64,000 bases of DNA from a virus (Duplodnaviria > Heunggongvirae > Uroviricota > Caudoviricetes): the IMG/VR virus record IMGVR_UViG_3300042483_000604; one strand, given 5' to 3'. Positions 9,188 through 35,921 of this stretch are shown piece by piece (within the stretch, counting starts at the first letter, position 1; the number at the start of each line of letters is the position of its first letter). A program made the translations under genes and the position numbers. The notes beneath the pieces were generated by a model, which made no database searches, was not told the DNA's origin, and saw nothing but the letters and a program-made list of their open reading frames with translations.

Positions 9188-10495
9188 CTATGCAAATATA
9201 AACTTCTGTGAAGCTATTAGTGCATCTGTGGTTAACTGTTTTTTATATGTCTGCATTATATTCTCTTTCTTCTTTATATCAAATGTAAAAGGTCCGTAAC
9301 TAAAAACACCTTCTTCGTTTTGATCTACAACAGTATGTATATTTTCTATTAAATTCCTTAACTCTGCATTAAAACTCTCTTTTAGTTCTGAATACTTAAA
9401 AGAAATTACAATATCTTCTTCTATTTCTGAGTCTATATCTGTAGTTACTATCCTTGTGTTAAAGTCTGTAGGATTAAAAAACTCCTTTACAGATTCCCAA
9501 TACTCTTTAGTATACTTCCATCGAAGATTACTGTAGTAGTGTGCTTCAAACTCTATCCTATTTTTAAGTTCCTCTGCAACTTGACTATCTGTTAGGTACA
9601 TTTTCTTACAATAAGGCTCTAACCATTGAAGTAATTCAAAATTAACCATTCTATCTATCTCTACCTTAAATGCTATATTATAGACAGGTTGTGGATGATG
9701 TCCAAAGAATCCCCACTTACGGATAAATCTCTTTAACTCTTGCATGTCTGCTTGCTGCTGTAATTCATTCTTATACGCTGCATCTGCATTAGTTTTATAC
9801 CAATCTGTACCTCTACTTGATACGCAAGTAAAATGGTATACACAAGCATTCCAAGTCTGTACCATTTCTAAATCACAAAGCTCCATTCTAATAATAGTAT
9901 CAGAGTCTTCTCTAGAGCATCTGAATTGTGTGTCAAAGCCTCCTAGTATATCAAACCATGTCTTTTTATATACAGCAAATGGAGCAAAGTGTCCAACCAT
10001 GGTAGGTCTATTCTCTTTTTGTAACTCATCTACAAATAAATTAAAAGCTTCATAGTCAAATTCTTCAGGAGTAATTCCAAAGTCTTTTACAATCTTTTCT
10101 GGAGAGCCTGGATGAAGTGGAGGTTCTATTCTAGCCATCGACAATACTCTCTTCTCCGATGTTAGATTTTCTAATATATGTTTATCAAAGTCCTTACCTA
10201 CTACCATGTCTGATTGTAAGTAACATACTAGATCATTCTTAGCTGCATCAAACATTACTGATATGTTCCTTTGCCCCCCTACAGGGTAGGGGTTAGGATT
10301 TTTACATATACGTAAGTTACTTATAGAGCTTTTGTACTCATTAAGTGCTTCGTATGTATTTTGATTGTCTGAATCTATAAAGATTAATACTTCATGTTTG
10401 TCTATAGTAGTATGATCTATTAAAGAATTCAGTAATAGTTTTGTATACTCTCTTTCGTTGTTAGCTGAAGCTATGCAAAACGTAATTGATTTCAT
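9188..10495 (-). CDS. family-2 glycosyltransferase (GT-A) with C-terminal extension
   Basis: N-terminal ITFCI..NNE..L pattern and DxD-type GT2 architecture. Confidence 0.6.
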   Translation of the reverse strand: MKSITFCIASANNEREYTKLLLNSLIDHTTIDKHEVLIFIDSDNQNTYEALNEYKSSISNLRICKNPNPYPVGGQRNISVMFDAAKNDLVCYLQSDMVVGKDFDKHILENLTSEKRVLSMARIEPPLHPGSPEKIVKDFGITPEEFDYEAFNLFVDELQKENRPTMVGHFAPFAVYKKTWFDILGGFDTQFRCSREDSDTIIRMELCDLEMVQTWNACVYHFTCVSSRGTDWYKTNADAAYKNELQQQADMQELKRFIRKWGFFGHHPQPVYNIAFKVEIDRMVNFELLQWLEPYCKKMYLTDSQVAEELKNRIEFEAHYYSNLRWKYTKEYWESVKEFFNPTDFNTRIVTTDIDSEIEEDIVISFKYSELKESFNAELRNLIENIHTVVDQNEEGVFSYGPFTFDIKKKENIMQTYKKQLTTDALIASQKFIFA

Positions 10496-10496
10496 A

Positions 10497-11255
10497 TTAC
10501 TTTTTTCTTAAAACCGCTAAGTAATTTATTTGTGAAGGATCTAATACTATCTCTACTAATTCAAAGTTATCTTGAATATCTTTGTTCTGTTGGTCATTTA
10601 AGAAGCTTGAGTATAATTCTCCTGTAGATAAAGTCTGTAGAAATTCTTCTGCGATTAATGCATTATCGTATTTAAACCATCCTCTTGACTTAAGTGGATT
10701 TTGTATATCTTCCATAAAGTAGTACCCTCCTGATTTTAACACTCCTATAGCTTTCCAAAGACTCACCATCATATGATTAGGCCAGTGGCTTCCGTCTTCA
10801 ACTACAAAATCAAATCTATTAGGAAATAATTCATTTAACTCATTCCAATCATCAAAGCTTCCTTGATCAGCATAAATAAAATTAACACCTTCACTGTTTA
10901 GTTTAGTAATATCCTCTAACTTATCTCCTATTTTATGCCCCCAGAAGTTATCTACAGCATATAGATCTAAGTCTTTAAAATAACTTTTCCACATCTTAAT
11001 AGATGCATAAGGAAATCTCTTATCACAAACACCTATTTCAAGCATACTGATAGAATCGTTTTTACTACTGTTCATATATTTTTCATAAGTAGTTGAATAA
11101 TGCCAACTTCTATGTGTGGCGTATTCTGTTCCCCATGATAAATTTACTGAATCGGATGTTCCTTTATCTGTTTCAAATTGATTTGCTAATTCTGATAAAG
11201 ATTTCTCCGGGCTGTGGTAAGGGTTATTGCTGTTTGTTTTTAAAAATAATTCCAT
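10497..11255 (-). CDS. class I SAM-dependent methyltransferase (TylF/MycF-like, sugar O-methyltransferase type)
   Basis: FETDKGT...H.Y..Y and MLEIGV Rossmann motif, VVEDGSH block. Confidence 0.55.
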   Translation of the reverse strand: MELFLKTNSNNPYHSPEKSLSELANQFETDKGTSDSVNLSWGTEYATHRSWHYSTTYEKYMNSSKNDSISMLEIGVCDKRFPYASIKMWKSYFKDLDLYAVDNFWGHKIGDKLEDITKLNSEGVNFIYADQGSFDDWNELNELFPNRFDFVVEDGSHWPNHMMVSLWKAIGVLKSGGYYFMEDIQNPLKSRGWFKYDNALIAEEFLQTLSTGELYSSFLNDQQNKDIQDNFELVEIVLDPSQINYLAVLRKK

Positions 11256-12024
11256 TTTTTTCTAATTGTATATAAGTGTTAATAATTCCTTGTTTTAATC
11301 CTACGAAAGCTATTGGAAGCTCGTTATAAATTCCTATGTAATTCTGTCCTGGTAAAGGATCTTGTATATTGATTGGTACTTTATTTATTGATAAGTTATT
11401 TATTTGCTGAGCTATATTACTTAACGAGACAGTATCATCATATATACAATCTACTTCTTTCAGAAGATCTTTTCCTACGATATAATACTCAATTATAGAG
11501 ATTAGATCAGGCATATAAATAAAGTCCATTAACTTATCTTGATGTATAACTATTGGATCATTATTTAGATAGCGTTGTATGTTAGATTTAATAAAGCGTG
11601 TATCTTTTTCTTTTTCATCAAACACAGCATATATTCTTAAGTTGTAAAAACTATCATACTTGTGTATAAGCTTATTTATTATCTTCTTACTAAAGCCATA
11701 TGGAGTATATTCTGTTCTATATTCAGCTCCTGAACCAAATGATATTAATTTGTTAAACTGTTCTTTTTTTCTGATTAAATTATAGAACATAATCAAGTTA
11801 TAGAAGCTAACAGTCTCATCTTCTTCTTTCAATCTATTTCCTCCTAGTGTTGCAGTATGTATTACAACATCAAAATATTTTCCTTCAAAAAAAGTATCTA
11901 CAGATTTAGAATCAAATAAATCCAGTTCTTCTCTTCCAGGAGCTATTATATGATACTTCTCCCAAAGCCTATTAGCAATACTCTTTGCTATGTATCCGTT
12001 TCCTCCTGTGATTAATATTTTCAT
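11224..12024 (-). CDS. NAD(P)-dependent epimerase/reductase (SDR superfamily)
   Basis: N-terminal ILITGGNGYIA Rossmann motif. Confidence 0.55.
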   Translation of the reverse strand: MKILITGGNGYIAKSIANRLWEKYHIIAPGREELDLFDSKSVDTFFEGKYFDVVIHTATLGGNRLKEEDETVSFYNLIMFYNLIRKKEQFNKLISFGSGAEYRTEYTPYGFSKKIINKLIHKYDSFYNLRIYAVFDEKEKDTRFIKSNIQRYLNNDPIVIHQDKLMDFIYMPDLISIIEYYIVGKDLLKEVDCIYDDTVSLSNIAQQINNLSINKVPINIQDPLPGQNYIGIYNELPIAFVGLKQGIINTYIQLEKNGIIFKNKQQ

Positions 12025-13773
12025 CTATAAATTAAATACATCTGAGATATGCATGTCAGTTAATTCTCCTGGTATTATTCTACCTTCAGAGTCTATTCCT
12101 TTATGCACAACCTTTGGTTCGTGAATTTCATATGGATATGTAAATAGTTCGCATACAACTGGACCTTCTGTAGAGTAAACTTGTGGTATCTTACTATCAT
12201 ACTCGCTATTAGATCTTATACCTATGTAGGGTAGTCCGTAAGCTTTACATATCTTTTCTAAGTCTGGGAAGCTTATTCCACTCTCTTTACCTGATGCAAC
12301 TTGTGTACCGTTGAAGAAAGCTTGCTGAGTTATCTTAATAGATAGGTACCCATCGTTGTTTATTACAAATAACTTAACTGGCACTTTGTGATGCACTAAG
12401 GTCTGTAACTCTTGAATGTTCATCTGTAAGCTTCCATCTCCTTCTATGCATGTGATGTCTTGTCCAGGGCTTGCAAATGCTGCTCCTATTGCAGCAGGAA
12501 GCCCATACCCCATACTCGCACAGCCTACATTTGTAAATAACCTCTGACCTTGCTTTAGTTGGTAGGTCTGTAGTGTTACTACATGTGCAGATCCATTACT
12601 GGTTATAATTGGTGCTCCGTTATCAAACTCTTTTAACCTATCCGTAAAGTAATATGCACTGGCATAGTCCTTCATATTAATATGCTTATCATAGAAATAC
12701 TTCTGTGTAGATCTTGTACCCTTAATATAGTTTTGCCATACTGAGATATCTGGATTGGTAAGTACTTTTCCTTCTATTTGTTTTAAGAACGTATTAATGT
12801 CTCCTAGTATCTTTTGCTCTATATTAAAAGTATGCTTATTAGATTCATACTTATCAATATCAATAAAGATCTTTTTAGCATTTGGAGCAAATTGAGGTGT
12901 ATTATACCCTGTCATCTTTACACTCAACCTACTTCCTAGTACTATAATAAGGTCTGCTTGTTGTACAATCGTATTAGAAGTTATTTGTCCTAAGATTCCA
13001 ATACGTCCTGCATAGTATTCGTAAGTATTATCTATACAATCCACTCCTGAATGTACTCCGGAGATTACCGGTATGTTAGTTTCTTTTAATATCTTATCGA
13101 AGAGATCAAAACTATTTGAAAGTCTTATTCCATTTCCAACTAAGAATAATGGCTTTTTTGCTTGCTTAATATGCTCTAGGAATGTATTAATTTCTTCCTC
13201 CGGTATTAAACTCTCTGTCTGAGATGCTTCTGTAGGCTTTAAGTCTTCCTCTGCTACTTCAGCTCCTTGTATATCCAAAGGAATATCTATCCATACTGGA
13301 CCTGGCCTACCTCCTACTGCTATACTGTATGCTTTTTCTAATTCAAATAAGATATCTCTCTTATCTGTAATCATTGTAGCATACTTAGTCATAGGAGTAA
13401 CTGCTGATACTATATCAAATTCTTGATCTCCTATTTGTCTACAACCGCTCTTACCTACTGTCTGGGATAGAGATACTTGCCCTGATATGAATAGGGTAGG
13501 TATGCTATCTAACCAACATCCTAATACGCCTGTCAGTGTATTAGTTCCTCCTGGTCCTGTTGTAACAATACAAGCTCCTACATCTTGTTTCAACCTTGCA
13601 TAACCTTCAGCAGCCATTGCAGCAGATTGCTCATGATGAACACATACGTAGTCTAGATTTTCTGCCTTACCTAAAGAGTCTATTAGATGTATACAACCTC
13701 CTCCTGAAACTGTAAATACATGTTTGATCTTTTTAGATTCTAAAAATTGTATTACTATATCAGATACTTTCAT
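12025..13773 (-). CDS. thiamine-diphosphate-dependent enzyme, acetolactate-synthase/YerE-like
   Basis: three-domain ALS architecture, GDGSLQMN ThDP-binding motif, TGPGGTN block. Confidence 0.7.
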   Translation of the reverse strand: MKVSDIVIQFLESKKIKHVFTVSGGGCIHLIDSLGKAENLDYVCVHHEQSAAMAAEGYARLKQDVGACIVTTGPGGTNTLTGVLGCWLDSIPTLFISGQVSLSQTVGKSGCRQIGDQEFDIVSAVTPMTKYATMITDKRDILFELEKAYSIAVGGRPGPVWIDIPLDIQGAEVAEEDLKPTEASQTESLIPEEEINTFLEHIKQAKKPLFLVGNGIRLSNSFDLFDKILKETNIPVISGVHSGVDCIDNTYEYYAGRIGILGQITSNTIVQQADLIIVLGSRLSVKMTGYNTPQFAPNAKKIFIDIDKYESNKHTFNIEQKILGDINTFLKQIEGKVLTNPDISVWQNYIKGTRSTQKYFYDKHINMKDYASAYYFTDRLKEFDNGAPIITSNGSAHVVTLQTYQLKQGQRLFTNVGCASMGYGLPAAIGAAFASPGQDITCIEGDGSLQMNIQELQTLVHHKVPVKLFVINNDGYLSIKITQQAFFNGTQVASGKESGISFPDLEKICKAYGLPYIGIRSNSEYDSKIPQVYSTEGPVVCELFTYPYEIHEPKVVHKGIDSEGRIIPGELTDMHISDVFNL

Positions 13774-14155
13774 TTGCGAAAAGTGCTATATCTTTTAGGG
13801 ATTGTTCCCAATTTAAAAATCTAATTGCTTTATCATCTACATAGCAGATTGCTCTAGGCTTCTCTGCTGTAACCTCAGCAATATAACTATCCATATTATA
13901 CTTTGCAAGCCAAAGCCAAACTAATTCTATACCTGTCTTACCATTTATTAAAGGCCTATCTGCTTTTGCTTTAGCAGTATAGAGTACAATCTTATACTTG
14001 CTTGCTAGAGTTTTTAAAGCTTCTAAAGAACCTTCTATAGGAGTTCCGTAAATAGTTCCATCGTGAAATCCTAATTCATGGCTATGTATAACTCCGTCAA
14101 AATCTACTGCTACAGTATTTGACTCTTCTGATAAAACTTTATTACTGTAATTCAT
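13760..14155 (-). CDS. small HAD-superfamily phosphatase
   Basis: VDFDGVI motif I of HAD hydrolases. Confidence 0.5.
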   Translation of the reverse strand: MNYSNKVLSEESNTVAVDFDGVIHSHELGFHDGTIYGTPIEGSLEALKTLASKYKIVLYTAKAKADRPLINGKTGIELVWLWLAKYNMDSYIAEVTAEKPRAICYVDDKAIRFLNWEQSLKDIALFANESI

Positions 14156-14955
14156 TATTTAGAGGTTATAGATTGATTAATACGGTCTTGAATCATTTTG
14201 ATTCGTTTGATATCTTGATTTGCTAAAGCTGTATAGTATTCATGCTTACTTGTCATCCATTCATATTCAAACATCTGAGCTTTTGATAAAGCTCTTGATA
14301 AGTTCTTTAACGCTATTGAAGGATCAAAGATACAGTATCTAGTTTCAAATTTGTCTAGTAACCCTTCTGAGTGTAATTTTTTAAGGAAGTCTAATGACTC
14401 AATAGATACAGCTCCTCCTAAACAAGCTTTTAGTCCATTAGCTTTTGCTTTAGTAAATACTTGTTTTGCAAGTTTATAAACCTCTTCACTGTTTACATAA
14501 GACCTATCCTTACCCATTGACGATACTAAGTCAACTCTACCTACAGTTACTCCGTATAAGTCTTGAATCTCAGGAATAGATAATATCTTATCTGAATTAT
14601 TCATAGCAGTAATTGTCTCTAGGTTTACGTTTAATTGTAAGGTACTTAGAACATCTTCTGAGATATGAGCTTTGGTGGCTTGTAAGAACTTCACTAATCC
14701 AAATTCAGACTCAACCATAGGGGCTACAATTCCTTTTACTCCAATAACAGTAGAGTCTTTTAAATCTCTAATTGCTTCTGGACCTCCGATCTTTAATGTA
14801 ACTTTAGTATTAGCTTCATTACATACTTGCTTAAGCCTAACTGTTTCGTTAAAGGTAGCACCTTCATCTTCGAAACTAGTTTTAATACCTACTAACCCTT
14901 CGTTATCGATAAGGTCAGCTAGGATTTTTACGCATTTTGATTCTCTTGTGTTCAT
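14155..14955 (-). CDS. HpcH/HpaI-family aldolase / citrate-lyase-beta-like TIM barrel
   Basis: APMVES and GRVDL..MG blocks characteristic of HpcH/HpaI aldolases. Confidence 0.5.
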   Translation of the reverse strand: MNTRESKCVKILADLIDNEGLVGIKTSFEDEGATFNETVRLKQVCNEANTKVTLKIGGPEAIRDLKDSTVIGVKGIVAPMVESEFGLVKFLQATKAHISEDVLSTLQLNVNLETITAMNNSDKILSIPEIQDLYGVTVGRVDLVSSMGKDRSYVNSEEVYKLAKQVFTKAKANGLKACLGGAVSIESLDFLKKLHSEGLLDKFETRYCIFDPSIALKNLSRALSKAQMFEYEWMTSKHEYYTALANQDIKRIKMIQDRINQSITSK

Positions 14956-14957
14956 AT

Positions 14958-15911
14958 TTACCAGATAAATTTTTCTCTACTATTTTCTACAATATACTTT
15001 AATTCAGTATCAAAGTTAATTTGAGGCTTCCATCCTAATGCTCTTAGCTTATCATCATTCAAAGCATACCTAACATCCTGTCCTTGTCTATTACATGAGA
15101 AGTCTATAAAGTCTTCTAGTATGTAAACCTGATCCTTATTATACAATGTAAGAACTTTTTTGATAGTATCCAAATTACTTTGTTCAAATCCTCCACAAAT
15201 ATTAAAGATTTCATTCTGTACTCCTGATTCAATAATTGTTATAACTGCCTTGGCAGTATCCTGAGCATGAAGCCAAGTCCTTATTGGAGTACCTCCATTA
15301 TGTAGAGGAATCTTTTTTCCTAGTTTTAAGTACTTCAAAGCTTTAGGAATTAACTTCTCAACATATTGCCCTATTCCGTAATTGTTTGTTGGTCGAACTA
15401 TTACATATGGAAGATTATAAGTCCTACCCCATGCCGTTACTAACATATCTGCTGCTGCTTTAGTAGCTGAATATGGATTAGAAGGTTTAAGTAGATCTGT
15501 TTCGATATGCTCTCCCTCTTCAATATCTCCATATACTTCGTCTGTACTGAAGTGAAGGAGTATAGGTTTAGATACGTTCTCTCCTCTGTGGTTCTTAATT
15601 AACTCTAATAGGTTATGAACTCCGTTTATATTTGAAGATACAAAATCATCTGAATTAGCAATTGAATTACCTACATGAGTTTCAGCTGCTGTATTGATAA
15701 TATAATCGCAATCGTATAAGAACTTTAAATCATTTATATCACAATCTACAAAAGAAAAGTTACTGTACTCTTTGAAATCTTTTAGTAGAGTTTTATTAGC
15801 TGCATAGGTTCCTTTATCAACTCCCTTAACATACCATCCTTTATTAAGACATGCTCTTGTTATATAGGATCCTATAAACCCTAAGCACCCTGTTACATAA
15901 ACTACTTTCAT
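14958..15911 (-). CDS. NDP-sugar 4,6-dehydratase (extended SDR)
   Basis: VTGCLGFIGS Rossmann motif, ETHVGNSI resembles RmlB ESHVDRSI. Confidence 0.6.
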   Translation of the reverse strand: MKVVYVTGCLGFIGSYITRACLNKGWYVKGVDKGTYAANKTLLKDFKEYSNFSFVDCDINDLKFLYDCDYIINTAAETHVGNSIANSDDFVSSNINGVHNLLELIKNHRGENVSKPILLHFSTDEVYGDIEEGEHIETDLLKPSNPYSATKAAADMLVTAWGRTYNLPYVIVRPTNNYGIGQYVEKLIPKALKYLKLGKKIPLHNGGTPIRTWLHAQDTAKAVITIIESGVQNEIFNICGGFEQSNLDTIKKVLTLYNKDQVYILEDFIDFSCNRQGQDVRYALNDDKLRALGWKPQINFDTELKYIVENSREKFIW

Positions 15912-17270
15912 TTAATCAAAAAATTTATCTACAATTGTTCCAATGTATTCTATTTGCTCTAGTGTAATGATTGGAGAACATCCTAAGAAGAAAGTATCTG
16001 TTGTTACTTTTCTTGATACTGGATATTTTTCAATTACTTCTTTTGAATCAATCAAATGAGAGTATCCTGGTTGAAGCATTATGTTACCTGCAAAGTAAGG
16101 TCTTGTTTGAATCTTATGCTTCTCTAAGAATTGACAGAACTCTGATCTTGTAAACCCTACTCCGTCTCTTAATGTCAATGCAACTGCAAACCAATCTGGA
16201 TCTGATTTAGCTGTAGCTTTAGGAAGGATAAATTTATCTTCATACTTCTTAAAGATATCGACAATTGCTTTATGATTTCTTCTTCTTAGTACTCCAATCT
16301 CTTCTAACTTACCTAACTGAACATTACCCATTGCTGCTTGTAACTCAGTTGGTTTTAGATTGTACCCAATCTCTTCGTAAGTATATTTGTGATCAAATAT
16401 CTCATTAGGTAGACTTGGTAACCAATTGCTAAATCTAATACCGCATGAACCACATTCTAAAGCATTTGCTTTACCTTGACAGTAACATCCTCTACCCCAG
16501 TCTCTAAAACTTCTTAAGATCTTTTCTGTTTGAGCATCTTGACAAGCTACAAATCCTCCTTCACCCATTGTAATGTGATGTGCTGGGTAGAATGAACATG
16601 AAGCCATTTTACCAAATGATCCTAACATCTTACCGTCATAGGTTGTTCCTAAAGCATCACAGCAGTCTTCTAATAAGATCAAATTGTATTTATTTACAAT
16701 TTCCATTAATCGATCCATGTTAGGTGGATTACCTAATACGTGAGCAAATGTAATTACCTTTGCATCTGGATGATCAATACATGCTTGCTCTACTTGATCT
16801 AAATCTAGGTTAAGAGATTCTAATTCAATATCAACAAAGATTGGTGTAAAGCCTACCTGAATGGCAGGACTAAGTGTTGCAGGGAACCCTGCTATTGGAG
16901 TAATAACTTTAGTACCTTTTGGTAAGTTCATTCCTCTTTTTGATGTTAAAGCTAACATCATTAGTAGATTAGCACTTGAACCGCTATTAACAATAACTCC
17001 GGTCTTTTGTCCTAGCTTCTTAGGAAACTTTCTTTCGAACATTGCTCCTTCTTTTCCTAGAACCAGCCATCCTTCTAGCATAGTTCTAACAACTGCTTGT
17101 GCTTCTTGTCCATCAAAATAAGGTCCAGCATATTGGACTAAGTCCTCTCCTGCTACCCATTTCTTCTCGCTATCCTTTTTTGTAATGTACTCTTGTACTA
17201 AATTTAAAATACTATCCATAACTGGTTTATAAAGTGTTGTAATAATTATTCTGCCTTTCTTGTCTGTCAA
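15912..17270 (-). CDS. DegT/DnrJ/EryC1/StrS-family PLP/PMP enzyme, E1 (CDP-6-deoxy-4-hexulose-3-dehydrase)-like
   Basis: fold-type I sugar aminotransferase architecture plus Cys cluster CYCQG...C.SCG reminiscent of the E1 [2Fe-2S] site. Confidence 0.55.
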   Translation of the reverse strand: MTDKKGRIIITTLYKPVMDSILNLVQEYITKKDSEKKWVAGEDLVQYAGPYFDGQEAQAVVRTMLEGWLVLGKEGAMFERKFPKKLGQKTGVIVNSGSSANLLMMLALTSKRGMNLPKGTKVITPIAGFPATLSPAIQVGFTPIFVDIELESLNLDLDQVEQACIDHPDAKVITFAHVLGNPPNMDRLMEIVNKYNLILLEDCCDALGTTYDGKMLGSFGKMASCSFYPAHHITMGEGGFVACQDAQTEKILRSFRDWGRGCYCQGKANALECGSCGIRFSNWLPSLPNEIFDHKYTYEEIGYNLKPTELQAAMGNVQLGKLEEIGVLRRRNHKAIVDIFKKYEDKFILPKATAKSDPDWFAVALTLRDGVGFTRSEFCQFLEKHKIQTRPYFAGNIMLQPGYSHLIDSKEVIEKYPVSRKVTTDTFFLGCSPIITLEQIEYIGTIVDKFFD

Positions 17271-17847
17271 TTGTCTTTGGATGGTACAAAGCCCATTCCT
17301 CTTCTACTGGAAGCATACCATGTATTTTAAATCCTTCTAATACTTCGTGTACTTTATTTTTCCATCTAATGTGAGGAGCATTTTTATAGATTCTCATTTG
17401 CCAATCAGCCCAGTTCACCCATCCTTTTTCATTTACATGCCATCCCCATTTCTGAATATGCTCTTGAGTTAAACCCTCTACGGTATTTACTCTAGGAACT
17501 CTAACCATATCAACATCGTTAGTGCTCAACATTGTAGGAAGGTTTTGTATTAAATTGATATGAGGAATCTCATCAGCATCTATCTGAAAGATATAATCTC
17601 CTGAGCATACTTTAAAGAATTTATTCTTCCAATCGGCAAAGTGTCCTTCAAATTGACTTTCGATTAACTTAATCCAATTTGCAGAAGAAAATCTATATAA
17701 CTGATCTTGTAACTCTTGAGACATTTTAGGACTATCTGCTAGTACTACTATCTCGTCTTGTTCTCGTTTGTTTGAATGAAGGAAGTTGACTAGTCTTTTC
17801 ACTTCCTCCAATTCGTTACAAACTGTTATTGCATAACTTATTTTCAT
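17227..17847 (-). CDS. family-2 glycosyltransferase
   Basis: N-terminal SYAITVCNE GT2 signature; promoter 17849-17880. Confidence 0.55.
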   Translation of the reverse strand: MKISYAITVCNELEEVKRLVNFLHSNKREQDEIVVLADSPKMSQELQDQLYRFSSANWIKLIESQFEGHFADWKNKFFKVCSGDYIFQIDADEIPHINLIQNLPTMLSTNDVDMVRVPRVNTVEGLTQEHIQKWGWHVNEKGWVNWADWQMRIYKNAPHIRWKNKVHEVLEGFKIHGMLPVEEEWALYHPKTIDRQERQNNYYNTL

Positions 17848-17848
17848 A

Positions 17849-17880
17849 CTTAAATATATGAAATTTATTCTTTATCTGCA
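17849..17880 (-). promoter_or_regulatory. promoter motif (19-nt spacer)
   Basis: sequence. Confidence 0.4.
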
Positions 17881-18323
17881 ACTTCTACATCAAAGAAGTT
17901 GATAGCATCTAATGCTTCCATAAAGTCTTCTTTCTCAAAATGTTTGATATTTTTCATATCCATTTTAGTTGTTTGACCTTTTGGGAACTTAGCTTTTTCT
18001 TCTTCTAAGATCTCTATAGAGTTTACTGCAGCCCATCTCCAATTATCTTTTGAATTTCCATCTAGGAATACCATTCCTTTCTCAGGAAGAGTAACTGTGG
18101 AAGGGAACCATACTTTCTTATTCTCATCAACGAACATAAGGTCTTTATACAGTTCTGGTGATGCTTCTAAAGTCTTATTAACTAATTCTCCTCCTTCAAC
18201 CATTAGAGTCGAAGTTGAATATCCACAACCAAAGCAAAAGCTTGTTGTTACTTCTTCTGTTACTGCTTGTTCATAGCAAGCATTTCCTCCACAATGTGGA
18301 CAGATTGACATTTTTTCTTCCAT
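17865..18323 (-). CDS. zinc-ribbon hypothetical protein
   Basis: CPHCGG...CFGCG. Confidence 0.45.
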   Translation of the reverse strand: MEEKMSICPHCGGNACYEQAVTEEVTTSFCFGCGYSTSTLMVEGGELVNKTLEASPELYKDLMFVDENKKVWFPSTVTLPEKGMVFLDGNSKDNWRWAAVNSIEILEEEKAKFPKGQTTKMDMKNIKHFEKEDFMEALDAINFFDVEVADKE

Positions 18324-19609
18324 TATAATTTTTTCAATTTAGGTAATTCTATTTTCTTAAGCGTAGGTAGCTTTAATTCAACTTGTTTAGGGAATTCAGG
18401 AATAGACTGTGTTAGAAGATTATCCAACGTCTCTCTCATCTTATCGTAGGAGAACTCAGTTCTACTTCTATGCCCTTGTCTTTTAGCTAATTCTTTATAG
18501 GCTTTATAGTCATCAAAGACATCTTTTAATGCCTTACCTACTAGTATATCGTCTGGTGTAAACCATTGACTCTCTCTTAAGATCATCTTATCAATTGCAG
18601 CTGATGGATGTACGTTTGTAAGTTGTCCTCCTATCTGTTTTGTGAACTTATTATCTAGGAAGTCTGTATGCCCTGACCATCCTGATACTATAATTGGTTT
18701 ATTTACTAAACTAAATTCAAGTAATGGTCTTCCAAATCCTTCTCCTTTTGTTAGAGAGATCATTGCTTTTACCTTACCGTGGTTGTATAGTTCATTCATC
18801 TCACCATCAGATAGTTCTCCATGTAGAAGGTATATGTTCGGTAACTTACCCTTCACAGTCTTTCTTATTTCATCAATTTTATCCAATACAGCTTCTCTAT
18901 CCATAATAGATGTTCCTGAACCTGCCTGTACTTTTAATAAAAGGGCTGGTGGTGTTTGTTTATTTTTAAATGTTTCTAAGAATGCTTTGATAGTATATCC
19001 AATATTTTTTCTATCCTCTCCTAATACTCCTGGTAGCCAATGTCCTACTACTAAGAAACAAAACATCTCTGGAATTTCATTTAAGTCTAGTTTAACTGGT
19101 AATGCCAATGGCATATACTTCTCCACATCTGCTCCTTCAAATACTACTTCAACTCTAGTAGTTAATTCCACTACTCCGGTTACTTGTCCAGTTCTTTCGT
19201 CCTGTATATTATACTTACTTTTCTCGAAAGTCTCCTTAGCATGTTGTGCAGATACTATTACTAGGTCCATATTGTTACATCCTTGAATCCAAGAAGGATC
19301 ACAAAGTGTTGTTTCAATTCCTGCTGTTACTCCTATATTGTACTTACCGACCTTTTGGAATTCATTTGGTACAGTAATTTGTATCCAGATGTCTGGTTGT
19401 TGTGTTAGTTGTGTAATAACTCTAGAATGTAATGATTCATTCTTATGATCTTTTAAATATCCAAATCTAGTATTACCCCATCTTTGTGATAATATTTTTA
19501 CATCATACTTGTCTGTATCAATGATTGACTGTACAAAGTCTCTTGCTCTTGCTCCGTATCCTGAATATGTATCGATAGGGCAACTTACTACTAATGTAGG
19601 TTTACTCAT
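18323..19609 (-). CDS. GT-B glycosyltransferase (GT4-like)
   Basis: EGFGRPLLEFSLVNKPIIVS E-x7-E motif. Confidence 0.6.
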   Translation of the reverse strand: MSKPTLVVSCPIDTYSGYGARARDFVQSIIDTDKYDVKILSQRWGNTRFGYLKDHKNESLHSRVITQLTQQPDIWIQITVPNEFQKVGKYNIGVTAGIETTLCDPSWIQGCNNMDLVIVSAQHAKETFEKSKYNIQDERTGQVTGVVELTTRVEVVFEGADVEKYMPLALPVKLDLNEIPEMFCFLVVGHWLPGVLGEDRKNIGYTIKAFLETFKNKQTPPALLLKVQAGSGTSIMDREAVLDKIDEIRKTVKGKLPNIYLLHGELSDGEMNELYNHGKVKAMISLTKGEGFGRPLLEFSLVNKPIIVSGWSGHTDFLDNKFTKQIGGQLTNVHPSAAIDKMILRESQWFTPDDILVGKALKDVFDDYKAYKELAKRQGHRSRTEFSYDKMRETLDNLLTQSIPEFPKQVELKLPTLKKIELPKLKKL

Positions 19610-19611
19610 AA

Positions 19612-21054
19612 CTAATATATTAATTTATGTGTGATGTATTTTTTTGGTCTGTCTGTAATTTTATGTAGTTCAAATCTAGGTCTAGGGACAAACTTCTCAA
19701 ATGATTCATCCATTGCATCAATTACATTCTCACACATCTGACGTGCTGACATTCCTGATTCATCTGATGTTACCCATTCTCTTGCTAAAGCTCCTCTTCT
19801 ATCTCTTTCCTCTTTACCCATGTTATAAACTTCTTCTAAAGCTTTTGCTACGTCTTCTGGTTTACATCTATCATCGAAGATATAAGGAGTCGGAACTGAG
19901 CCAACCATTGAAATGTTTGAAGGGAATACAGGGACTGCCCATTCTCCACACTCCTTATATGTTCCTCTATGATTAGAAGGGAAGTCAGGAGTAAAGTCAA
20001 TCCACTTACCATTCTCGTCTGTAAATCTCATCTGATCTTGCATACCGCCTGTTACGTTAGCAATAATCATTTTTCCTGCCATCATAGTTTCTGTTAGAGA
20101 TAATCCCCATCCTTCGTTAGAAGTGATAAGCATTCCAACATCTGCTATATTATAAAGTAAGTTCATATGCGGAGTGTCTAATCTCTCTTGTGAGAAGAAT
20201 ACATTTACATAACTGTCATCACAGATAGCTTCTCTTACTGCATAAAGATCTGTACCATTTTCATCCACAGCTTGTGTATGCATTACAAGAGCACATTTCT
20301 TAGCTTTCTCTTCTCCGATTAAATCACAGAACATTCTATAAGAAAGAATTACATCTCCTGGAGATTTTCTTCTGATGTTCCTAGAATTAAAGAATGCTAC
20401 GAATTCGATATCTTTTCCTTGAAATAGATTCTTTTTAAACTCATCTAAGTTTTTAATATCCTCTACTGAGGTCATTGGAAAGAAGTGTTCGTGGTTTATT
20501 CCATGAGGTACGTATCTAGTTATTTTACCCTTAACAGCATCTCCTAAAACTATTTCATTAATATTTTTAGTTTGTTTTGAGATTGCCATTAATAAATCAC
20601 ATGACTCGTAGTAAGGTCTGTTGTACAAAGGTGCTGGATAGTCATCCCAAATGTTTAAGTACATCAAAGGAATTTCATTTCTAATCTCTCTTTCTATTTC
20701 AAACAACCAAGTCCAGTATCTTGGATCAGTAAAGATGAAAATAGCGTCTGGTTTTTCTTGAGCGATTAAACCTCTTATTTGCATTGCTTCACCATAGCCG
20801 TTGTTAGGGAGTACCTTTACATCAGCATCTTCTATACCGTTTAACTTATTTATCTCAGCTGATATATCAAATGCTTTACCTACTTCTGGATGATTGATGG
20901 CTGCTGCTAGATTAACCCAGTTGAAATGATGAGCTGTTCCTACAACAATCTCTCTGGCCATAGTTGCGATACCGGAATGCATCCTAATATCATCGCATAA
21001 CAAAAGAATCTTTTTACGATCCTCTTTCTTAACATAACGAAATTTTTCTTTCAT
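19612..21054 (-). CDS. GT-B glycosyltransferase (GT4-like)
   Basis: NEGWGLSLTETMMAGKMIIANVTGG motif. Confidence 0.6.
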   Translation of the reverse strand: MKEKFRYVKKEDRKKILLLCDDIRMHSGIATMAREIVVGTAHHFNWVNLAAAINHPEVGKAFDISAEINKLNGIEDADVKVLPNNGYGEAMQIRGLIAQEKPDAIFIFTDPRYWTWLFEIEREIRNEIPLMYLNIWDDYPAPLYNRPYYESCDLLMAISKQTKNINEIVLGDAVKGKITRYVPHGINHEHFFPMTSVEDIKNLDEFKKNLFQGKDIEFVAFFNSRNIRRKSPGDVILSYRMFCDLIGEEKAKKCALVMHTQAVDENGTDLYAVREAICDDSYVNVFFSQERLDTPHMNLLYNIADVGMLITSNEGWGLSLTETMMAGKMIIANVTGGMQDQMRFTDENGKWIDFTPDFPSNHRGTYKECGEWAVPVFPSNISMVGSVPTPYIFDDRCKPEDVAKALEEVYNMGKEERDRRGALAREWVTSDESGMSARQMCENVIDAMDESFEKFVPRPRFELHKITDRPKKYITHKLIY

Positions 21055-30572: not shown

Positions 30573-30872
30573 TTAATATTCCCCGTAAAGGTCAAACTTT
30601 TCTGGCTCTGGAGGTGTCCAAGTAACTGTCTGTGTTTTAATAGCGTAGAGCTCTCCTTTTAAAGGTTCTAATCTATAAGCTCCTTTAAATTCTGTCGCTC
30701 TCATATAAGCCGATAGAGTTGGTACTAGTCCTTCAATTACTCCAGGAGGAAATCCATACCACTCTCCTTTCCAATTATCACCTGGCGGTACTCTCCTTGC
30801 AATCAACTCAAGTACTTCTTCTTGTCTTGAATTAGCTTCCATTATTGGCGTAATGTTTTTTCCATTCTGCAT
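30573..30872 (-). CDS. hypothetical protein
   Basis: ORF track; 3' overlap with the QueF-like gene. Confidence 0.4.
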   Translation of the reverse strand: MQNGKNITPIMEANSRQEEVLELIARRVPPGDNWKGEWYGFPPGVIEGLVPTLSAYMRATEFKGAYRLEPLKGELYAIKTQTVTWTPPEPEKFDLYGEY

Positions 30873-31765
30873 TTTACATCTGCAAAGAAGCTTGGGATTA
30901 ATTCCTTATGTGAAGCTCTTACTGGATTAATATCTAATCCTCCTCTACGAGTGTAAAGACAAGCTACCATTAATTCTTCTGGATTGTAAGCTTCTCTTAA
31001 GTGCATGTAAACCATTTCACAAATCTCTTCGTGGAAGTGACTTACTTGTCTGTGACTTACAATATATTTTGCTAATGATTCTAAATTAGGAACAACTCCT
31101 GCTTTAGGTTTAATGTGAATAAATACATCACCCCAGTCTGGTTGATTTGTTACTCTACAATTTGATCTTAAAAGATTTGATTGTATTTTGATTACTCCAA
31201 TTTCGAAATCATCATCTACTTCTTCTGTTTCCAATTGTGTAGCATCTGAATGATAAGAAGTAAATTCAATATTATCTAGATTAGCTATTTGATCCAATTG
31301 TGCATATCCTTTAAATGCATATGCTGGTCCAAAGTCTGAAGTAAACATCTCTACTTCTACATTTGTTTGTAACTTCTCAGATAAATCTCTCTTTACTCTA
31401 TCTTTTAAAATTGCAATACACTCTGCTGCTGTATCTCCCATTTGAGTCATATTGAATGAATTCAAATACAATTTGATAGATTTAGACTCTACGTGAAGTT
31501 TTGAATCTGCTGGATAGTAAATTTTCAACATCCCTACTACTGGAAGTCCTTTTGTAGTGATTGCTGATACTTCGTATGCATTCCAAACATCTCCTCCAAC
31601 AAATGGTAAGTTGTTATCGTCTATTCCGTATGCTTCTCTGTTTAAGTAACGAGGAATCTCTACTAATAATTCTGGATCATAAGTATCCTTATAACCTTCT
31701 CCTCCTACTTTACCAAGATGCTTTCCGGCAATCTTTACTACTTCTGCTTGATTTAATTCTGCCAT
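30842..31765 (-). CDS. queF: QueF-like protein (type II 7-cyano-7-deazaguanine reductase family)
   Basis: ESKSIKLYLNSF motif and two-domain T-fold size (~300 aa). Confidence 0.6.
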   Translation of the reverse strand: MAELNQAEVVKIAGKHLGKVGGEGYKDTYDPELLVEIPRYLNREAYGIDDNNLPFVGGDVWNAYEVSAITTKGLPVVGMLKIYYPADSKLHVESKSIKLYLNSFNMTQMGDTAAECIAILKDRVKRDLSEKLQTNVEVEMFTSDFGPAYAFKGYAQLDQIANLDNIEFTSYHSDATQLETEEVDDDFEIGVIKIQSNLLRSNCRVTNQPDWGDVFIHIKPKAGVVPNLESLAKYIVSHRQVSHFHEEICEMVYMHLREAYNPEELMVACLYTRRGGLDINPVRASHKELIPSFFADVKCRMEKTLRQ

Positions 31766-31766
31766 G

Positions 31767-32318
31767 TTATTTTATATAGTTTAATATTTGTTCAACTCTT
31801 TGTTTAGGACTTCCTGATACTGTTAAGTAATCTCCTCCTAATGCTTTAATTGCTTTTAAGTTATTCTCAAATTGCTTATCGATTGCATCTCTCCATCCTT
31901 CGTTAACACTTCTTACTCCATCATCTACAGAAGCAAATTCAATAGGGAAATAAATAAAATGTGTATATTGATCCTTAACTCTCATCCAAGTATCTAAGAT
32001 ATAATTGTATGTACTATCAGAAATGTTTTCCATATAAGTAGAATATACTACTAGGTCTAAATAACATCTGTCAAGTATTACATCTCCTGGCTGTAGTAAA
32101 GCCTCTAAATGAAAAGAAGAAATAGCAAGCTGTGTTTCAGAAGTTCCATCTTCGTTAATAGGAAATCCATATTTACCAACCGTTCTTGTTGATTCGTTTA
32201 TAAAATTAAACTCTGGAAGTCTATCTTTTAATAATTCGTATACAGTAGTCTTTCCTACTGATGATGCTCCTACTAATGCTATTCTTTTCATAACTAATTT
32301 TTTAAGAAGTCTACCCAA
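31767..32318 (-). CDS. P-loop NTPase/kinase
   Basis: Walker A GASSVGKTT. Confidence 0.5.
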   Translation of the reverse strand: MGRLLKKLVMKRIALVGASSVGKTTVYELLKDRLPEFNFINESTRTVGKYGFPINEDGTSETQLAISSFHLEALLQPGDVILDRCYLDLVVYSTYMENISDSTYNYILDTWMRVKDQYTHFIYFPIEFASVDDGVRSVNEGWRDAIDKQFENNLKAIKALGGDYLTVSGSPKQRVEQILNYIK

Positions 32319-32821
32319 AGACTTACTGATATACTATGTAATATATGAAATAATTCTCCAATCTCCAACCCTTTTATAGAAACTTTTCTACTACGGAGTA
32401 TCTCTCCTTCATCAACTCCTTCTGTTACTCTATGAATAACACATCCTGAGGATTCTAATCCTAGGTCGAAAGCTTTTTGCTGAGGATCTTTTCCTTTTAG
32501 TTCTGGATATTCAGTTATAAGTCCTGGATGTCCGTTATAGATTTCAAATCGATTACAGATATATGGAGGCATAATTCTCAACCATCCATGAAGAGTTACT
32601 AAAGGATTTCCATATTGGCCAAGTATCATTGACAATTCTTCTTCTGTAGGTTTATTCTCTACAAAGACTAAATGCTTTGATTCTAAAGCCGGATGAATCT
32701 TTCTAAGATGTTCTGGTCTTTCGTTTGTTACTATCATATCAGGCCATCTTCCTAAAAGCTTTGACACTTCTACGATCTCTGATCCTGTTTGACTAAAGAA
32801 TGCTATCCAAGGCCTACTCAT
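32294..32821 (-). CDS. formyltransferase (PurN/Fmt N-domain family)
   Basis: YNGHPGLI...SGCVIHRVTEGVDEGEIL matches the formyl_trans_N catalytic block. Confidence 0.6.
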   Translation of the reverse strand: MSRPWIAFFSQTGSEIVEVSKLLGRWPDMIVTNERPEHLRKIHPALESKHLVFVENKPTEEELSMILGQYGNPLVTLHGWLRIMPPYICNRFEIYNGHPGLITEYPELKGKDPQQKAFDLGLESSGCVIHRVTEGVDEGEILRSRKVSIKGLEIGELFHILHSISVSLWVDFLKN

Positions 32822-32999
32822 GTGATATACTTATTATTCTACTTTCATCTACAAAGATAAAATTACCTTTTACTCTTAAACTGTACGAAGGTTTTCCTGA
32901 AGTGTTATTTACTATTCCAAATACTTCAGCATCTATAATCTCATTATCGAGATTAATAATAACCATCTCTCCTACTTTATACTTTGCGTCCATTTGCAA
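32814..32999 (-). CDS. small hypothetical protein
   Basis: ORF track. Confidence 0.3.
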   Translation of the reverse strand: MQMDAKYKVGEMVIINLDNEIIDAEVFGIVNNTSGKPSYSLRVKGNFIFVDESRIISISHE

Positions 33000-33771
33000 A
33001 CCATCTGAATTTGTGAATGTTCTGAAGAATCATATTCGTATCTTCTGGTACGTAATTGATTAGTTCAAATAACTTTTGAGACTCTTTTGACCATAATCCG
33101 TCTGCTCTATACTCAATTCCTTTTATACCATGTACAACTGGATTAGAAGTATCTAAAGAATAGATCCATTTATAATCTGAGTAAAAAGAAAACTCTTGAG
33201 GTAATCCACATCCTAATAAGTGATGCTTCTTCTCTTCGTTTATTACACCGTCTCTCAACAGATCTCCTAGTAGCTTAACCCTTCCTAACATCCAGCTAAC
33301 ATACTTGTTAGGATGAGAAATAGTATTAGTATAGTACGAATAGTCGAATGAAATTGCAATCATATCTACATTTGCAATCTTATCCATATACTCATAACAA
33401 GTCTTAATTTGACTATAAGTCTTTCCTTGAACAACTCCTATTTTCTTTCCTGGAAGATTTTTATATTTGTTATTCCATTCAGTCATCTGCTTAACAGTCT
33501 TCTTTGCATCTTCTAAAGCATCTGGAACTATATACCAATCTGGCTTTAATTCTAATACCCATCCTGCAAACTTCTCTGCATCAAAAGCTTCTTCTAATTC
33601 AAATATAGAATTATCTAAAATAATTTCTCTACCTGCTTCTTTAGCTTCTTGAAACTGTTTTAAGTATTCTGGATCTTCTTCAAATAAGTGAACAAGTGCA
33701 TAGTCGTAATCAGTATGCTTTTGTACTTCTTTAAATATACTCTTCGGTGATTCGTGTGCTATCTTAATCAT
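32977..33771 (-). CDS. dpdA: DpdA-like DNA/tRNA-guanine transglycosylase homologue (TGT fold, no zinc subdomain)
   Basis: GVVQGKT (TGT GIVQGG-like), HHLLGCGLPQEF (YLMGVGxP-like), SLDTSNPVVHG (DCVLPTRxGRxG-like). Confidence 0.55.
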   Translation of the reverse strand: MIKIAHESPKSIFKEVQKHTDYDYALVHLFEEDPEYLKQFQEAKEAGREIILDNSIFELEEAFDAEKFAGWVLELKPDWYIVPDALEDAKKTVKQMTEWNNKYKNLPGKKIGVVQGKTYSQIKTCYEYMDKIANVDMIAISFDYSYYTNTISHPNKYVSWMLGRVKLLGDLLRDGVINEEKKHHLLGCGLPQEFSFYSDYKWIYSLDTSNPVVHGIKGIEYRADGLWSKESQKLFELINYVPEDTNMILQNIHKFRWFANGRKV

Positions 33772-34479: not shown

Positions 34480-34531
34480 ATCTTTTTACTTTTTTATTAA
34501 TATAAGAAATTGGCTCCGAAGAGCCAACTTA

Positions 34532-34729: not shown

Positions 34730-34741
34730 AATGTTTGGTTT

Positions 34742-35452: not shown

Positions 35453-35492
35453 ATAAGATTGTTTTTATGGAGGTTCTACGACTCCGTTTTAT

Positions 35493-35919: not shown

Positions 35920-35921
35920 AA

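Follow-up and report, generated by a model that had tools for sequence, protein, structure and literature searches.

The element described here is a block of twelve genes at positions 9188-21054 of a 64,000-nucleotide (nt) stretch of DNA (the window) from the tailed-phage record IMGVR_UViG_3300042483_000604 of IMG/VR. The block is almost certainly a locus for glycan synthesis and transfer, and it is made up of a conserved transferase module (3.7 kb) and an exchangeable cassette (~9188-17327) with its own GT2 glycosyltransferase. By analogy with characterised enzymes and gene clusters, the cassette probably directs the synthesis of an acyl-branched 3,6-dideoxyhexose by way of a YerE-like enzyme dependent on thiamine diphosphate (ThDP). 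This chemistry is of a known bacterial kind; what is new is the phage that carries it, the dTDP-type entry into the pathway, the pairing of the ThDP enzyme with a HAD or a NeuB protein, and the exchange of the unit that makes the donor for the branch.

All twelve consecutive open reading frames (ORFs) listed by a first-pass annotation of this DNA are present (Table 1), every one on the minus strand, and they are separated by at most 17 nt or have abutting or overlapping frames. The G+C content of the island (0.31-0.36) is in line with the remainder of the window. No terminator-like site within the island rose above the shuffled-sequence background, and the combined promoter and terminator scan, which is poorly suited to Bacteroidota promoters, gave nothing above the shuffles. 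Because the same 12-gene order was found on at least 14 contigs of independent metagenomes, the island is real and not an assembly artefact. On either side of it the window is ~87% identical at the nt level to Flavobacterium phage vB_FspM_immuto (immuto), a 160-kb T4-like myovirus from the Baltic Sea, and synteny points to the source phage being an immuto-like, Flavobacterium-type, T4-like myovirus of the virulent type. Nucleotide similarity to immuto ends at position 9183 and restarts at 17327. Only ~9188-17327 is specific to the source phage, and the remaining 3.7 kb is conserved and lies beside a hypervariable cassette slot.

Table 1. Genes of the island in order of transcription, with the exchangeable sub-cassette in the last line (aa, amino acids; SAM, S-adenosylmethionine; PMP, pyridoxamine phosphate; NDP, nucleoside diphosphate; TPP, thiamine pyrophosphate; ALS, acetolactate synthase)
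Feature	Position	Strand	Basis
GT-B/GT4-like glycosyltransferase GT480, 480 aa, first island gene	19612..21054	minus	PF00534 Glycos_transf_1 28.6 bits vs cutoff 26.4; phrog_2170 1.2e-13
GT4-like glycosyltransferase GT428, 428 aa	18323..19609	minus	PF00534 21.8 bits, under cutoff 26.4; full-length phrog_2170 'glycosyltransferase' 1.6e-15
Zn-ribbon protein, 152 aa, N-terminal CxxC...CxxC, not an enzyme family	17865..18323	minus	weak Lar-like match, E 0.007
GT2 glycosyltransferase GT2-206, 206 aa	17227..17847	minus	PF00535 39.8 bits
E1/RfbH-type PMP-dependent NDP-4-keto-6-deoxyhexose 3-dehydrase, [2Fe-2S] Cys motif, 435 aa	15912..17219	minus	NF011936 456.6 bits vs cutoff 423; PDB 3bcx
RmlB-type NDP-glucose 4,6-dehydratase, 317 aa	14958..15911	minus	TIGR01181 3.1e-88, 295.9 bits, below cutoff 365
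Class II (metal-dependent) HpcH/HpaI-family pyruvate aldolase, 266 aa	14155..14955	minus	PF03328 40.3 bits vs cutoff 25
Small cap-less HAD-like phosphatase (putative), 131 aa	13760..14155	minus	phrog_1238 1.8e-14; NCBIfam BT0820 HAD phosphatase model E 1.2e-3; no Pfam match
YerE-like ThDP-dependent carboligase (predicted), 582 aa	12025..13773	minus	all three TPP domains, full length
Extended SDR reductase, 266 aa	11224..12024	minus	PF01370 4e-15 and RmlD_sub_bind; motifs GGNGYIA, YGFSK
MycE/TylE-like SAM-dependent (sugar O-)methyltransferase, 252 aa	10497..11255	minus	PDB 8ia9 (TylE) 1.4e-8, 3ssm (MycE) 2.7e-7; phrog_21658 'methyltransferase' 5.9e-11; no Pfam match
Cassette-linked terminal GT2, 435 aa	9188..10495	minus	PF00535 39.1 bits vs cutoff 23.3
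Exchangeable three-gene sub-cassette aldolase-HAD-ThDP	12027..14957	minus	blastn vs L002

The branching step would fall to the ThDP enzyme. Its best matches in the PDB were JanthE (8rph, 6.9e-116, 390.9 bits), which is a YerE-like enzyme (PMC12188165), and PpYerE (5ahk, 4.8e-78, 266 bits), with the best acetohydroxyacid synthase, E. coli AHAS I (2.9e-70, 240 bits), behind both. It scored below every NCBIfam cutoff for acetolactate synthase (ALS), the best model being TIGR00118 at 359.7 bits against 538.35; no gene for a regulatory small subunit or ACT protein lies next to it, and there is no ilvC or ilvD among the island and flanking ORFs. A true acetolactate synthase is rejected on the sub-cutoff ALS scores and the nearer YerE-like structures, and the YerE-like assignment of the first-pass annotation withstood the comparison with an acetolactate synthase and its regulatory partner; by its nearest solved relatives and its gene context, the enzyme is predicted to be YerE-like. 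That it instead serves the synthesis of branched-chain amino acids, as an auxiliary metabolic acetolactate synthase beside unrelated sugar genes, as the names of the top NCBIfam models (acetolactate synthase large subunits, E 2.4e-107) and the label 'acetolactate synthase' given to its homologues by JGI would have it, is so improbable that it can be set aside, since all ALS models are far under their curated cutoffs, solved YerE-like enzymes outscore any AHAS, small-subunit, ilvC and ilvD genes are missing nearby, the gene is set between aldolase/HAD and SDR genes with overlapping or abutting frames, and genes for E1 and a 4,6-dehydratase accompany it in bacteria as well as in phages. Four contexts of homologues at 59-74% identity were examined, and all were the same phage island. 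Among deposited phages, the homologues of the ThDP enzyme were just at the ALS level (at most 32% identity), and those with an annotation were ordinary acetolactate synthases on records that look bacterial; the 50,697 deposited phage records held no aldolase of the family found here and no YerE-like gene above ALS-level similarity. E1-like genes at ~42% identity are present in some cultured cyanophages.

The acceptor for this step would be made by two further enzymes, which had been recognised at first pass as an NDP-sugar 4,6-dehydratase and a DegT/E1-like enzyme with a Cys cluster, both of them rightly. The dehydratase carries STDEVYG and YSATK motifs, its ten best PDB matches are all dTDP-glucose 4,6-dehydratases (2hun, 1.2e-66), and the CDP-type model matched it at only 64 bits; it is predicted to be of the dTDP (RmlB) type and not of the CDP type. 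The E1-like protein matched Yersinia E1 (PDB 3bcx) at ~1e-104 to 6.6e-104. In the alignment to 3bcx, SFYPAHHITMGEGG is identical in the two proteins and places His220 where aminotransferases have the Schiff-base Lys. The cysteines of the phage protein align with the CC, the C-x-C and the downstream C of Yersinia E1, which we take to be the [2Fe-2S] ligands C193, C251, C253 and C261 of that enzyme. All four cluster cysteines of the motif C-x57-C-x-C-x7-C are kept in the phage protein, in which the final spacing is 4 residues longer. Because His replaces the Schiff-base Lys and the Fe-S cysteines are present, we read the DegT protein as a 3-dehydrase; these two features and the NF011936 score above cutoff rule out an ordinary aminotransferase, the alternative that had been raised at first pass. 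The ORF reaches back to a TTG at 17270, and the 435-aa gene starting at the ATG at 17219 was called in four independent metagenome contigs; this ATG is probably the true start. In distant phages, the aldolase-HAD-ThDP-SDR block is paired with a shorter DegT protein, which retains the His, lacks the Fe-S segment and is predicted to be a ColD-like 3-dehydratase. Since either an E1-type or a ColD-like DegT protein can stand beside the same block, the 4-keto-3,6-dideoxy sugar acceptor appears to be the constant part, and its making varies.

The aldolase, whose gene lies two genes from the ThDP gene, was correctly placed in the HpcH/HpaI family at first pass. Its AlphaFold2 (AF2) model had a mean confidence (pLDDT) of 90, the top Foldseek matches of this model were all class II pyruvate aldolases (HpcH/HpaI, YfaU, HKA), and a family profile found the same aldolases, with E113 and D142 within the aligned IET/GxxDL motifs. 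A phosphoenolpyruvate (PEP) mutase was considered for this TIM-barrel protein and rejected, as hidden Markov models, profile and fold point to HpcH/HpaI aldolases instead, and a phosphonate-pathway pair of PEP mutase and phosphonopyruvate decarboxylase was rejected for the aldolase and the ThDP enzyme, as the latter has three full-length ALS-type domains. In bacteria the aldolase family comprises 974 clusters at 50% identity and is found in at least 581 loci of many phyla, of which the best 80 were examined. A YerE-like gene was found within a few kb of the aldolase gene, mostly adjacent to it, in 64 of these 80 loci, an E1 homologue in 36 and an SDR in 34. For instance, the gene order in Gabonibacter massiliensis is nucleotidyltransferase (NTP transferase), CDP-type 4,6-dehydratase, E1, SDR, ThDP, aldolase, HAD, GT2 and GT9. 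The best bacterial aldolase is 51% identical to that of the phage and the bacterial ThDP enzymes 37-43%, and at such identities a recent capture from a sequenced bacterium is unsupported. An 11.6-kb contig assigned to a 'Terrimicrobiaceae MAG', a metagenome-assembled genome (L088; JBMOHW010000076.1), has the phage transferase module and an 82-83%-identical aldolase, and it looks like a phage contig that was mis-binned into a bacterial genome.

A role for such an aldolase is provided by the unifying scheme for acyl-branched sugars of Steitz et al. 2022, in which a pyruvate aldolase makes a gamma-hydroxy-alpha-keto acid, a YerE-like enzyme (ErwE, MMAR_2332, MyGE) couples this keto acid to CDP-4-keto-3,6-dideoxyglucose, and a YerF-like reductase completes the branch (PMC9306805). 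According to that paper, ErwE rejects pyruvate, the caryophyllose aldolase MMAR_2331 belongs to the HpcH/citrate-lyase family, caryophyllose is lost when MMAR_2331, the ThDP-enzyme gene MMAR_2332 or the glycosyltransferase gene MMAR_2333 is knocked out, and the R. palustris cluster has a SAM methyltransferase as well (PMC9306805). Exchange among phages bears on the same point. The IMG/VR contig L002 is 91% identical to the window at the nt level over positions 23000-14958 and 93% over 12026-10335, and exactly in place of the aldolase, HAD and ThDP genes it has genes for a NeuB-family synthase, a second type of ThDP enzyme (51% aa identical) and an FkbM-like methyltransferase. Of 35 viral loci, 31 have a NeuB gene next to the ThDP gene, and both the aldolase and the HAD are missing from those loci. 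The products of NeuB-family enzymes that have been characterised are likewise 3-deoxy-2-ulosonic (alpha-keto) acids. The bacterial co-location, the swap in L002 and the variable route to a constant acceptor make the supply of an alpha-keto-acid donor for the ThDP enzyme the best reading of the aldolase, and by analogy with the published systems we consider this role likely. If the aldolase supplies the donor, a product with a branch longer than C2 (erwiniose/caryophyllose class) is more likely than yersiniose. Of the yersiniose-type branched 3,6-dideoxyhexose proposed at first pass, the branched deoxysugar is retained, as the enzyme families match, and yersiniose itself is the less likely product. 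Aldolase-derived 2-keto-3-deoxy sugar acids had been proposed as an alternative route; given the co-location in bacteria and the published scheme, the two routes are probably one.

A different division of labour would be that the ThDP enzyme makes a plain yersiniose-type sugar by adding a C2 branch from pyruvate, and that the aldolase and the HAD make a separate 2-keto-3-deoxy sugar acid (KDO/KDN-like) which is also incorporated. YpYerE, the founding member of its family, does favour pyruvate (PMC12247030), and the aldolase and HAD resemble the synthase-phosphatase pairs of the KDO/KDN pathways, with KdsC among the non-significant fold matches of the HAD. However, no CMP-activating cytidylyltransferase for an ulosonic acid was found in the ORFs scanned for absent components (all those of the island and its flanks and 20 larger ones elsewhere in the window), the aldolase family is linked to YerE-like genes in most of the bacterial loci examined, and aldolase, HAD and ThDP genes are swapped as a single unit. 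Furthermore, for ErwE an order in which the aldolase acts after branching was tested and rejected (PMC9306805). We therefore regard this division of labour as improbable, and donor supply by the aldolase is retained in what follows.

The HAD phosphatase of the first-pass annotation is moderately supported, and more softly than had been stated. Residues D18xD20, T60, K99 and D107D108, which can be read as the four HAD motifs, are invariant across 24 homologues. The AF2 model of the protein had a pLDDT of 73.5, for which Foldseek listed KdsC, GmhB and C-terminal domain (CTD) phosphatases at a non-significant E of 0.05 or above, and a profile search of the PDB with this protein gave nothing useful. 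In 24 of the 80 bacterial loci, HAD genes of two other subfamilies directly follow the aldolase gene, so that recruitment of a HAD looks recurrent and non-orthologous. Such recruitment points to a phosphate on the aldehyde or on the aldol product. The phage HAD could remove this phosphate within the donor branch of the pathway, a role that we assign to it only tentatively.

The remaining genes of the cassette would complete and transfer the sugar. The SDR gene, another correct call of the first pass, abuts the ThDP gene (12024/12025), and a homologue accompanies the ThDP gene in the 34 bacterial loci with an SDR, mostly directly upstream, and in phage loci too. The methyltransferase had been described as TylF-like; that it is a methyltransferase stands, and its closest resemblance is to MycE and TylE rather than to TylF. 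The terminal GT2 is just 31% identical to gp169 of immuto despite flanks that are ~87% identical at the nt level, and it is 47-50% identical to its counterparts in distant phages that have the same cassette type.

Taken as a whole, we regard the following pathway, together with the account of the locus given here, as reasonably probable; the enzyme families are those assigned above, and the substrates and the order of steps are those that we infer. Host NDP-glucose, probably dTDP-glucose, would be converted by the RmlB-type dehydratase into NDP-4-keto-6-deoxyglucose, from which the E1-type PMP/[2Fe-2S] 3-dehydrase would strip the C3 hydroxyl, giving NDP-4-keto-3,6-dideoxyhexose, with electrons provided by a redox protein of the host or another one of the phage. 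In parallel, the class II aldolase would join pyruvate and an aldehyde, possibly a phosphorylated one, into a 4-hydroxy-2-oxo acid, and the HAD phosphatase would take the phosphate off the aldol product or its precursor. The YerE-like enzyme would then decarboxylate the keto acid and add the acyl-anion equivalent to the C4 ketone, yielding an acyl-branched sugar with a tertiary alcohol. The SDR may reduce the carbonyl of the branch, the role of YerF and ErwF, and the MycE/TylE-like enzyme may O-methylate one hydroxyl. Finally, the GT2 of the cassette would add the branched sugar to a glycan primed by the conserved transferases.

Several points weigh against this pathway. All of its substrates follow from family membership and gene context, and the dehydratase is of the dTDP type, while the characterised E1 and YerE use CDP-sugars. 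As had been noted at first pass, a sugar-1-phosphate nucleotidyltransferase was not found in the scanned ORFs of the window, nor was one found by tblastn with a bacterial NTP transferase, and an E3 (AscD/DdhD) reductase, whose absence had gone unremarked at first pass, is also absent from the scanned ORFs (no Fer2, FAD_binding_6 or NAD_binding_1). The HAD is tied to the pathway less strongly than the aldolase. Its assignment leans on a PHROG match, a weak NCBIfam match and motifs, the fold search being non-significant, and this HAD is present in just 4 of 28 IMG/VR aldolase loci. The commonest context in these loci is aldolase, adh_short (211 aa), a protein like 3-dehydroquinate (DHQ) synthase (338 aa), a ThDP enzyme at 44-49% identity and an SDR (L212 6001-10914; L221 6001-11626). 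Since so few loci have the HAD and most have adh_short and the DHQ-synthase-like gene instead, the phosphate idea is not general, and the notion that the aldolase always needs a phosphatase is weakened. DHQ synthases act on a phosphorylated 3-deoxy-ulosonate, and these neighbours are compatible with the phosphate idea without proving it. In addition, the aldolase and NeuB variants have the terminal GT2 in common at 93% nt identity (to the end of the L002 locus), which is odd if the side chains of the two variants differ greatly. One further locus (L230) has aldolase, NeuB and ThDP genes together.

The missing components may come from elsewhere. An own nucleotidyltransferase is present in 36 of the 80 bacterial loci and in the phage locus L085; neither a nucleotidyltransferase nor an E3 is annotated in immuto, the ferredoxin gp081 aside, and there is no E3 among the genes scanned in the Gabonibacter cluster. 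The precursor is probably the dTDP-glucose of the host, given that the dehydratase is RmlB-like and no transferase of the phage's own was found, and that the bacterial cassettes are of the CDP type with their own transferase. As no E3 was found in the scanned ORFs, the electrons for E1 would come from redox proteins of the host or others of the phage. SpnQ, an E1 homologue that acts on TDP-sugars, runs with general ferredoxin or flavodoxin reductases, and by analogy general redox proteins probably serve the phage enzyme. The ferredoxin-annotated gp081 of immuto (L210 45676-46320; record 112575-113219) lies outside the span that is syntenic with the window and is a possible electron donor for the Fe-S 3-dehydrase or for QueE.

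The cassette evolves by exchange of whole modules and of sub-modules between phages, like a serotype locus. The cassette of immuto at the same slot has genes for aminotransferases, an epimerase, a PglB-like protein, a methyltransferase and a mannosyltransferase-like glycosyltransferase and would be of an amino-sugar type, and the biosynthetic genes of the source phage have no counterpart in immuto. Gene orders were counted in 42 loci that extend 6 kb or more beyond the conserved GT2 in the downstream direction (37 from a search with GT480, the window, and 4 found via ThDP/aldolase homologues), whose first 6 kb showed 33 different orders of gene families and 139 protein clusters at 50% identity. 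Cassette length is 2.6-7 kb where both flanks are visible, 8.1 kb in the window and ~18 kb in L085. Between the locus L083 and the window, identity is 68-77% for the cassette proteins and 41-47% for the backbone proteins, which points to movement of the cassette from one phage lineage to another. Family sizes, given as 90%-identity clusters, were 1694 for the aldolase and 702 for the HAD, and GT480 has 335 relatives in IMG/VR on this basis. The phage lineage that carries the cassette is common in aquatic metagenomes. The long cassette of L085 (1864-21013) has genes for a 623-aa NTP transferase, a GT61-like protein, E1, a 4,6-dehydratase, NeuB and a ThDP enzyme, and it further holds adh_short, a DHQ-synthase-like protein, two more SDRs and a second DegT protein.

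Upstream of the cassette the module is conserved. GT480, GT428, the Zn-ribbon protein and GT2-206 are 91%, 91%, 93% and 71% identical to gp181, gp180, gp179 and gp178 of immuto, respectively, and the 3' end of the GT2-206 gene forms the border of the variable cassette (~17327). The three core transferases are kept across phages with backbones that are just 41-58% identical, and the Zn-ribbon protein is found in most related loci. Of the two GT2 and two GT4 glycosyltransferases counted at first pass, both GT2s and one GT4 were confirmed above the Pfam cutoff, and the other GT4, below that cutoff, is a softer assignment.

As acceptor of the glycan, virion proteins, the DNA or the host surface had been proposed at first pass; DNA is disfavoured by mass spectrometry of immuto DNA, as set out below. 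A phage protein of the virion is our best guess, and a tentative one. It is placed slightly ahead of the host envelope on two grounds, which are arguments and not results: distant phages share the core transferases, and a cell surface would be replaced only slowly in a lytic cycle. Synteny with immuto puts ~20 kb or more between the island and the structural genes.

It is possible instead that the same sugar chemistry serves a glycan which is built on a host lipid carrier and ends on the host envelope, as an O-antigen or capsule does, either to block superinfection or to keep progeny off debris. The homologous bacterial cassettes lie in lipopolysaccharide (LPS)-type clusters with GT9 heptosyltransferase-like genes, and the related phage locus L084 has GT9 and ADP-heptose-type genes. 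No family of GtrA/B/C, initiating phosphoglycosyltransferase, flippase, polymerase, ligase or ABC exporter was found by Pfam in the island and its flanks, and the hydropathy scan predicted no transmembrane helix in any of the 12 proteins. However, many O-antigen transferases are peripheral proteins, and the lack of such helices is compatible with assembly on a host lipid carrier, which has to be counted against a virion acceptor. Hypervariable islands of transferase and LPS genes in pelagimyophages and cyanomyophages have also been read as serving modification of the host surface (PMC7029224). On the other side, replacing a surface would be slow relative to the single lytic cycle of a T4-like myovirus of the virulent type, and core transferases conserved over backbones of 41-58% identity fit a phage-encoded acceptor at least as well. 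Literature searches on immuto or on Flavobacterium sp. LMO8 yielded nothing on glycans beyond the 7-deazaguanine paper.

The 'hypermodified DNA' of the first-pass annotation corresponds to a 7-deazaguanine (fdPreQ1-type) DNA-modification set at window positions 30842-37779 and 57944-58834, in which FolE (34742-35452), a QueE-like radical SAM protein (37006-37779) and QueC (57944-58834) were recognised by Pfam, and a QueF-like protein, DpdA and the DpdN formyltransferase by synteny with immuto. Among these genes is an extra GT1-family glycosyltransferase (39146-40264; phrog_3408 2e-172), which is 64-66% aa identical to a glycosyltransferase of the T4-like cyanophages S-CAM7 and ACG-2014f and for which none is annotated syntenically in immuto. 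Glycosylation of this DNA by the transferases of the island is very unlikely. Phage GT-B transferases that modify DNA do exist, as in T4, the island sits among genes of nucleotide metabolism and 7-deazaguanine synthesis, and in a related locus a glycosyltransferase is annotated as PF20706 'GT4-conflict'. However, GT480 has no match to PF20706 at E <= 0.01, and we know of no precedent on DNA for a multi-sugar glycan made by five transferases and bearing a branched dideoxysugar. Furthermore, when the DNA of immuto, whose copies of the four conserved genes are 71-93% identical to those of the island, was analysed by liquid chromatography with ultraviolet and mass-spectrometric detection, no nucleosides were seen other than fdPreQ1, in the place of G, and dA, dC and dT (PMC10516641).

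Other features of the window lie apart from the island. There are 23 tRNA genes at 52212-57157 on the minus strand, with a G+C content of 0.41-0.45 and an HNH endonuclease ORF (53437-53943) inside the array, where immuto has four annotated tRNAs. Beside the array, at 43455-50538, is an RNA-repair-like set, which includes an RNA ligase (47849-48979), a protein with a cyclic-phosphate-processing receiver domain (45653-46582) and two metallophosphatases (43455-44156 and 49888-50538). A thymidylate synthase homologue of 384 aa at 41240-42394 has an insertion of ~80 residues relative to the Pfam model. A type IX secretion system (T9SS) C-terminal sorting domain (Por_Secre_tail) is encoded at 63480-63974 and a weak CsgG-like protein at 62449-62961; curli-type genes have been reported in pelagimyophages (PMC7029224).

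YerE-like branching enzymes and acyl-branched sugars have so far been described just from bacterial and mycobacterial cell-surface glycans, and a 2025 review names viruses as unexplored (PMC12247030). If the chemistry is as proposed, phages make some of the most elaborate monosaccharides known, and the 33 orders in 42 loci suggest that a glycan made by the phages is under strong selection for diversity. The natural swaps would in that case also yield enzyme pairs for the biocatalysis of chiral tertiary alcohols (aldolase-HAD-ThDP, NeuB-ThDP, and E1- and ColD-type 3-dehydratases). It is conceivable, though we think it rather unlikely in this full form, that aquatic phages decorate their own virions, or another target of the phage's choosing, with a long-chain polyhydroxy-acyl-branched dideoxyhexose, from a serotype locus under diversifying selection in which donor-making units are swapped, each with its cognate ThDP enzyme. 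These units may be aldolase and phosphatase, a NeuB-family synthase, or aldolase, SDR and DHQ-synthase-like protein. If this is true, the coupling of NeuB to ThDP and of aldolase/HAD to ThDP is a new biosynthetic logic for branched sugars, and the sugars are undescribed in any organism. With the chemistry as proposed, the role of phage transferase islands would also become testable in a cultivable system, that of immuto on Flavobacterium sp. LMO8.

Among viruses, Mimivirus has clusters for its fibril glycan, and giant viruses hold lineage-specific clusters for the biosynthesis of rare sugars. Glycosylation of the capsid and tail tube of mycobacteriophages is among the work cited in PMC11256854. 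Like these systems, the island has virus-borne transferases; its sugar chemistry differs. The islands of pelagimyophages and cyanomyophages are likewise found in large aquatic myophages, are non-syntenic and are rich in transferases and deoxysugar genes (PMC7029224); in contrast, they are located in the tail-fibre ('host recognition') region, and the present island is in the arm of replication and nucleotide metabolism. Immuto has the same slot, flanks and four conserved genes, with a cassette that has no E1, ThDP, aldolase or HAD gene.

The pathway for yersiniose A in Yersinia pseudotuberculosis (DdhA-D, YerE, YerF) has 4,6-dehydration, deoxygenation of C3 by E1, ThDP-dependent branching at C4 and reduction in common with that proposed here. 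It uses pyruvate for a C2 branch, CDP-glucose, the E3 DdhD and the cytidylyltransferase DdhA, none of which is encoded in the phage island, and it is without the aldolase, HAD and methyltransferase that the island has. The bacterial pathways for longer acyl branches also differ from the island, which is phage-borne, has a dTDP/RmlB-type dehydratase with neither nucleotidyltransferase nor E3 found, a small HAD-like gene between aldolase and ThDP genes, and no counterpart of the acetaldehyde dehydrogenase ErwJ; ErwI belongs to the BphI type and the phage aldolase to the HpcH type, and the phage ThDP enzyme and aldolase are ~37-51% identical to the bacterial neighbours found. In its overall composition, the island is like the systems for erwiniose (ErwI/ErwJ/ErwE/ErwF), caryophyllose (MMAR_2331/2332/2333) and gastriose (MygI/MyGE/MygF) and that of R. 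palustris CGA009, in that a 4,6-dehydratase and an E1 are combined with a pyruvate aldolase, a ThDP enzyme (in the phage, predicted to be YerE-like), an NAD(P)H reductase and a dedicated glycosyltransferase (PMC9306805), and it shares a SAM methyltransferase with R. palustris and an aldolase of the HpcH/citrate-lyase family with MMAR_2331.

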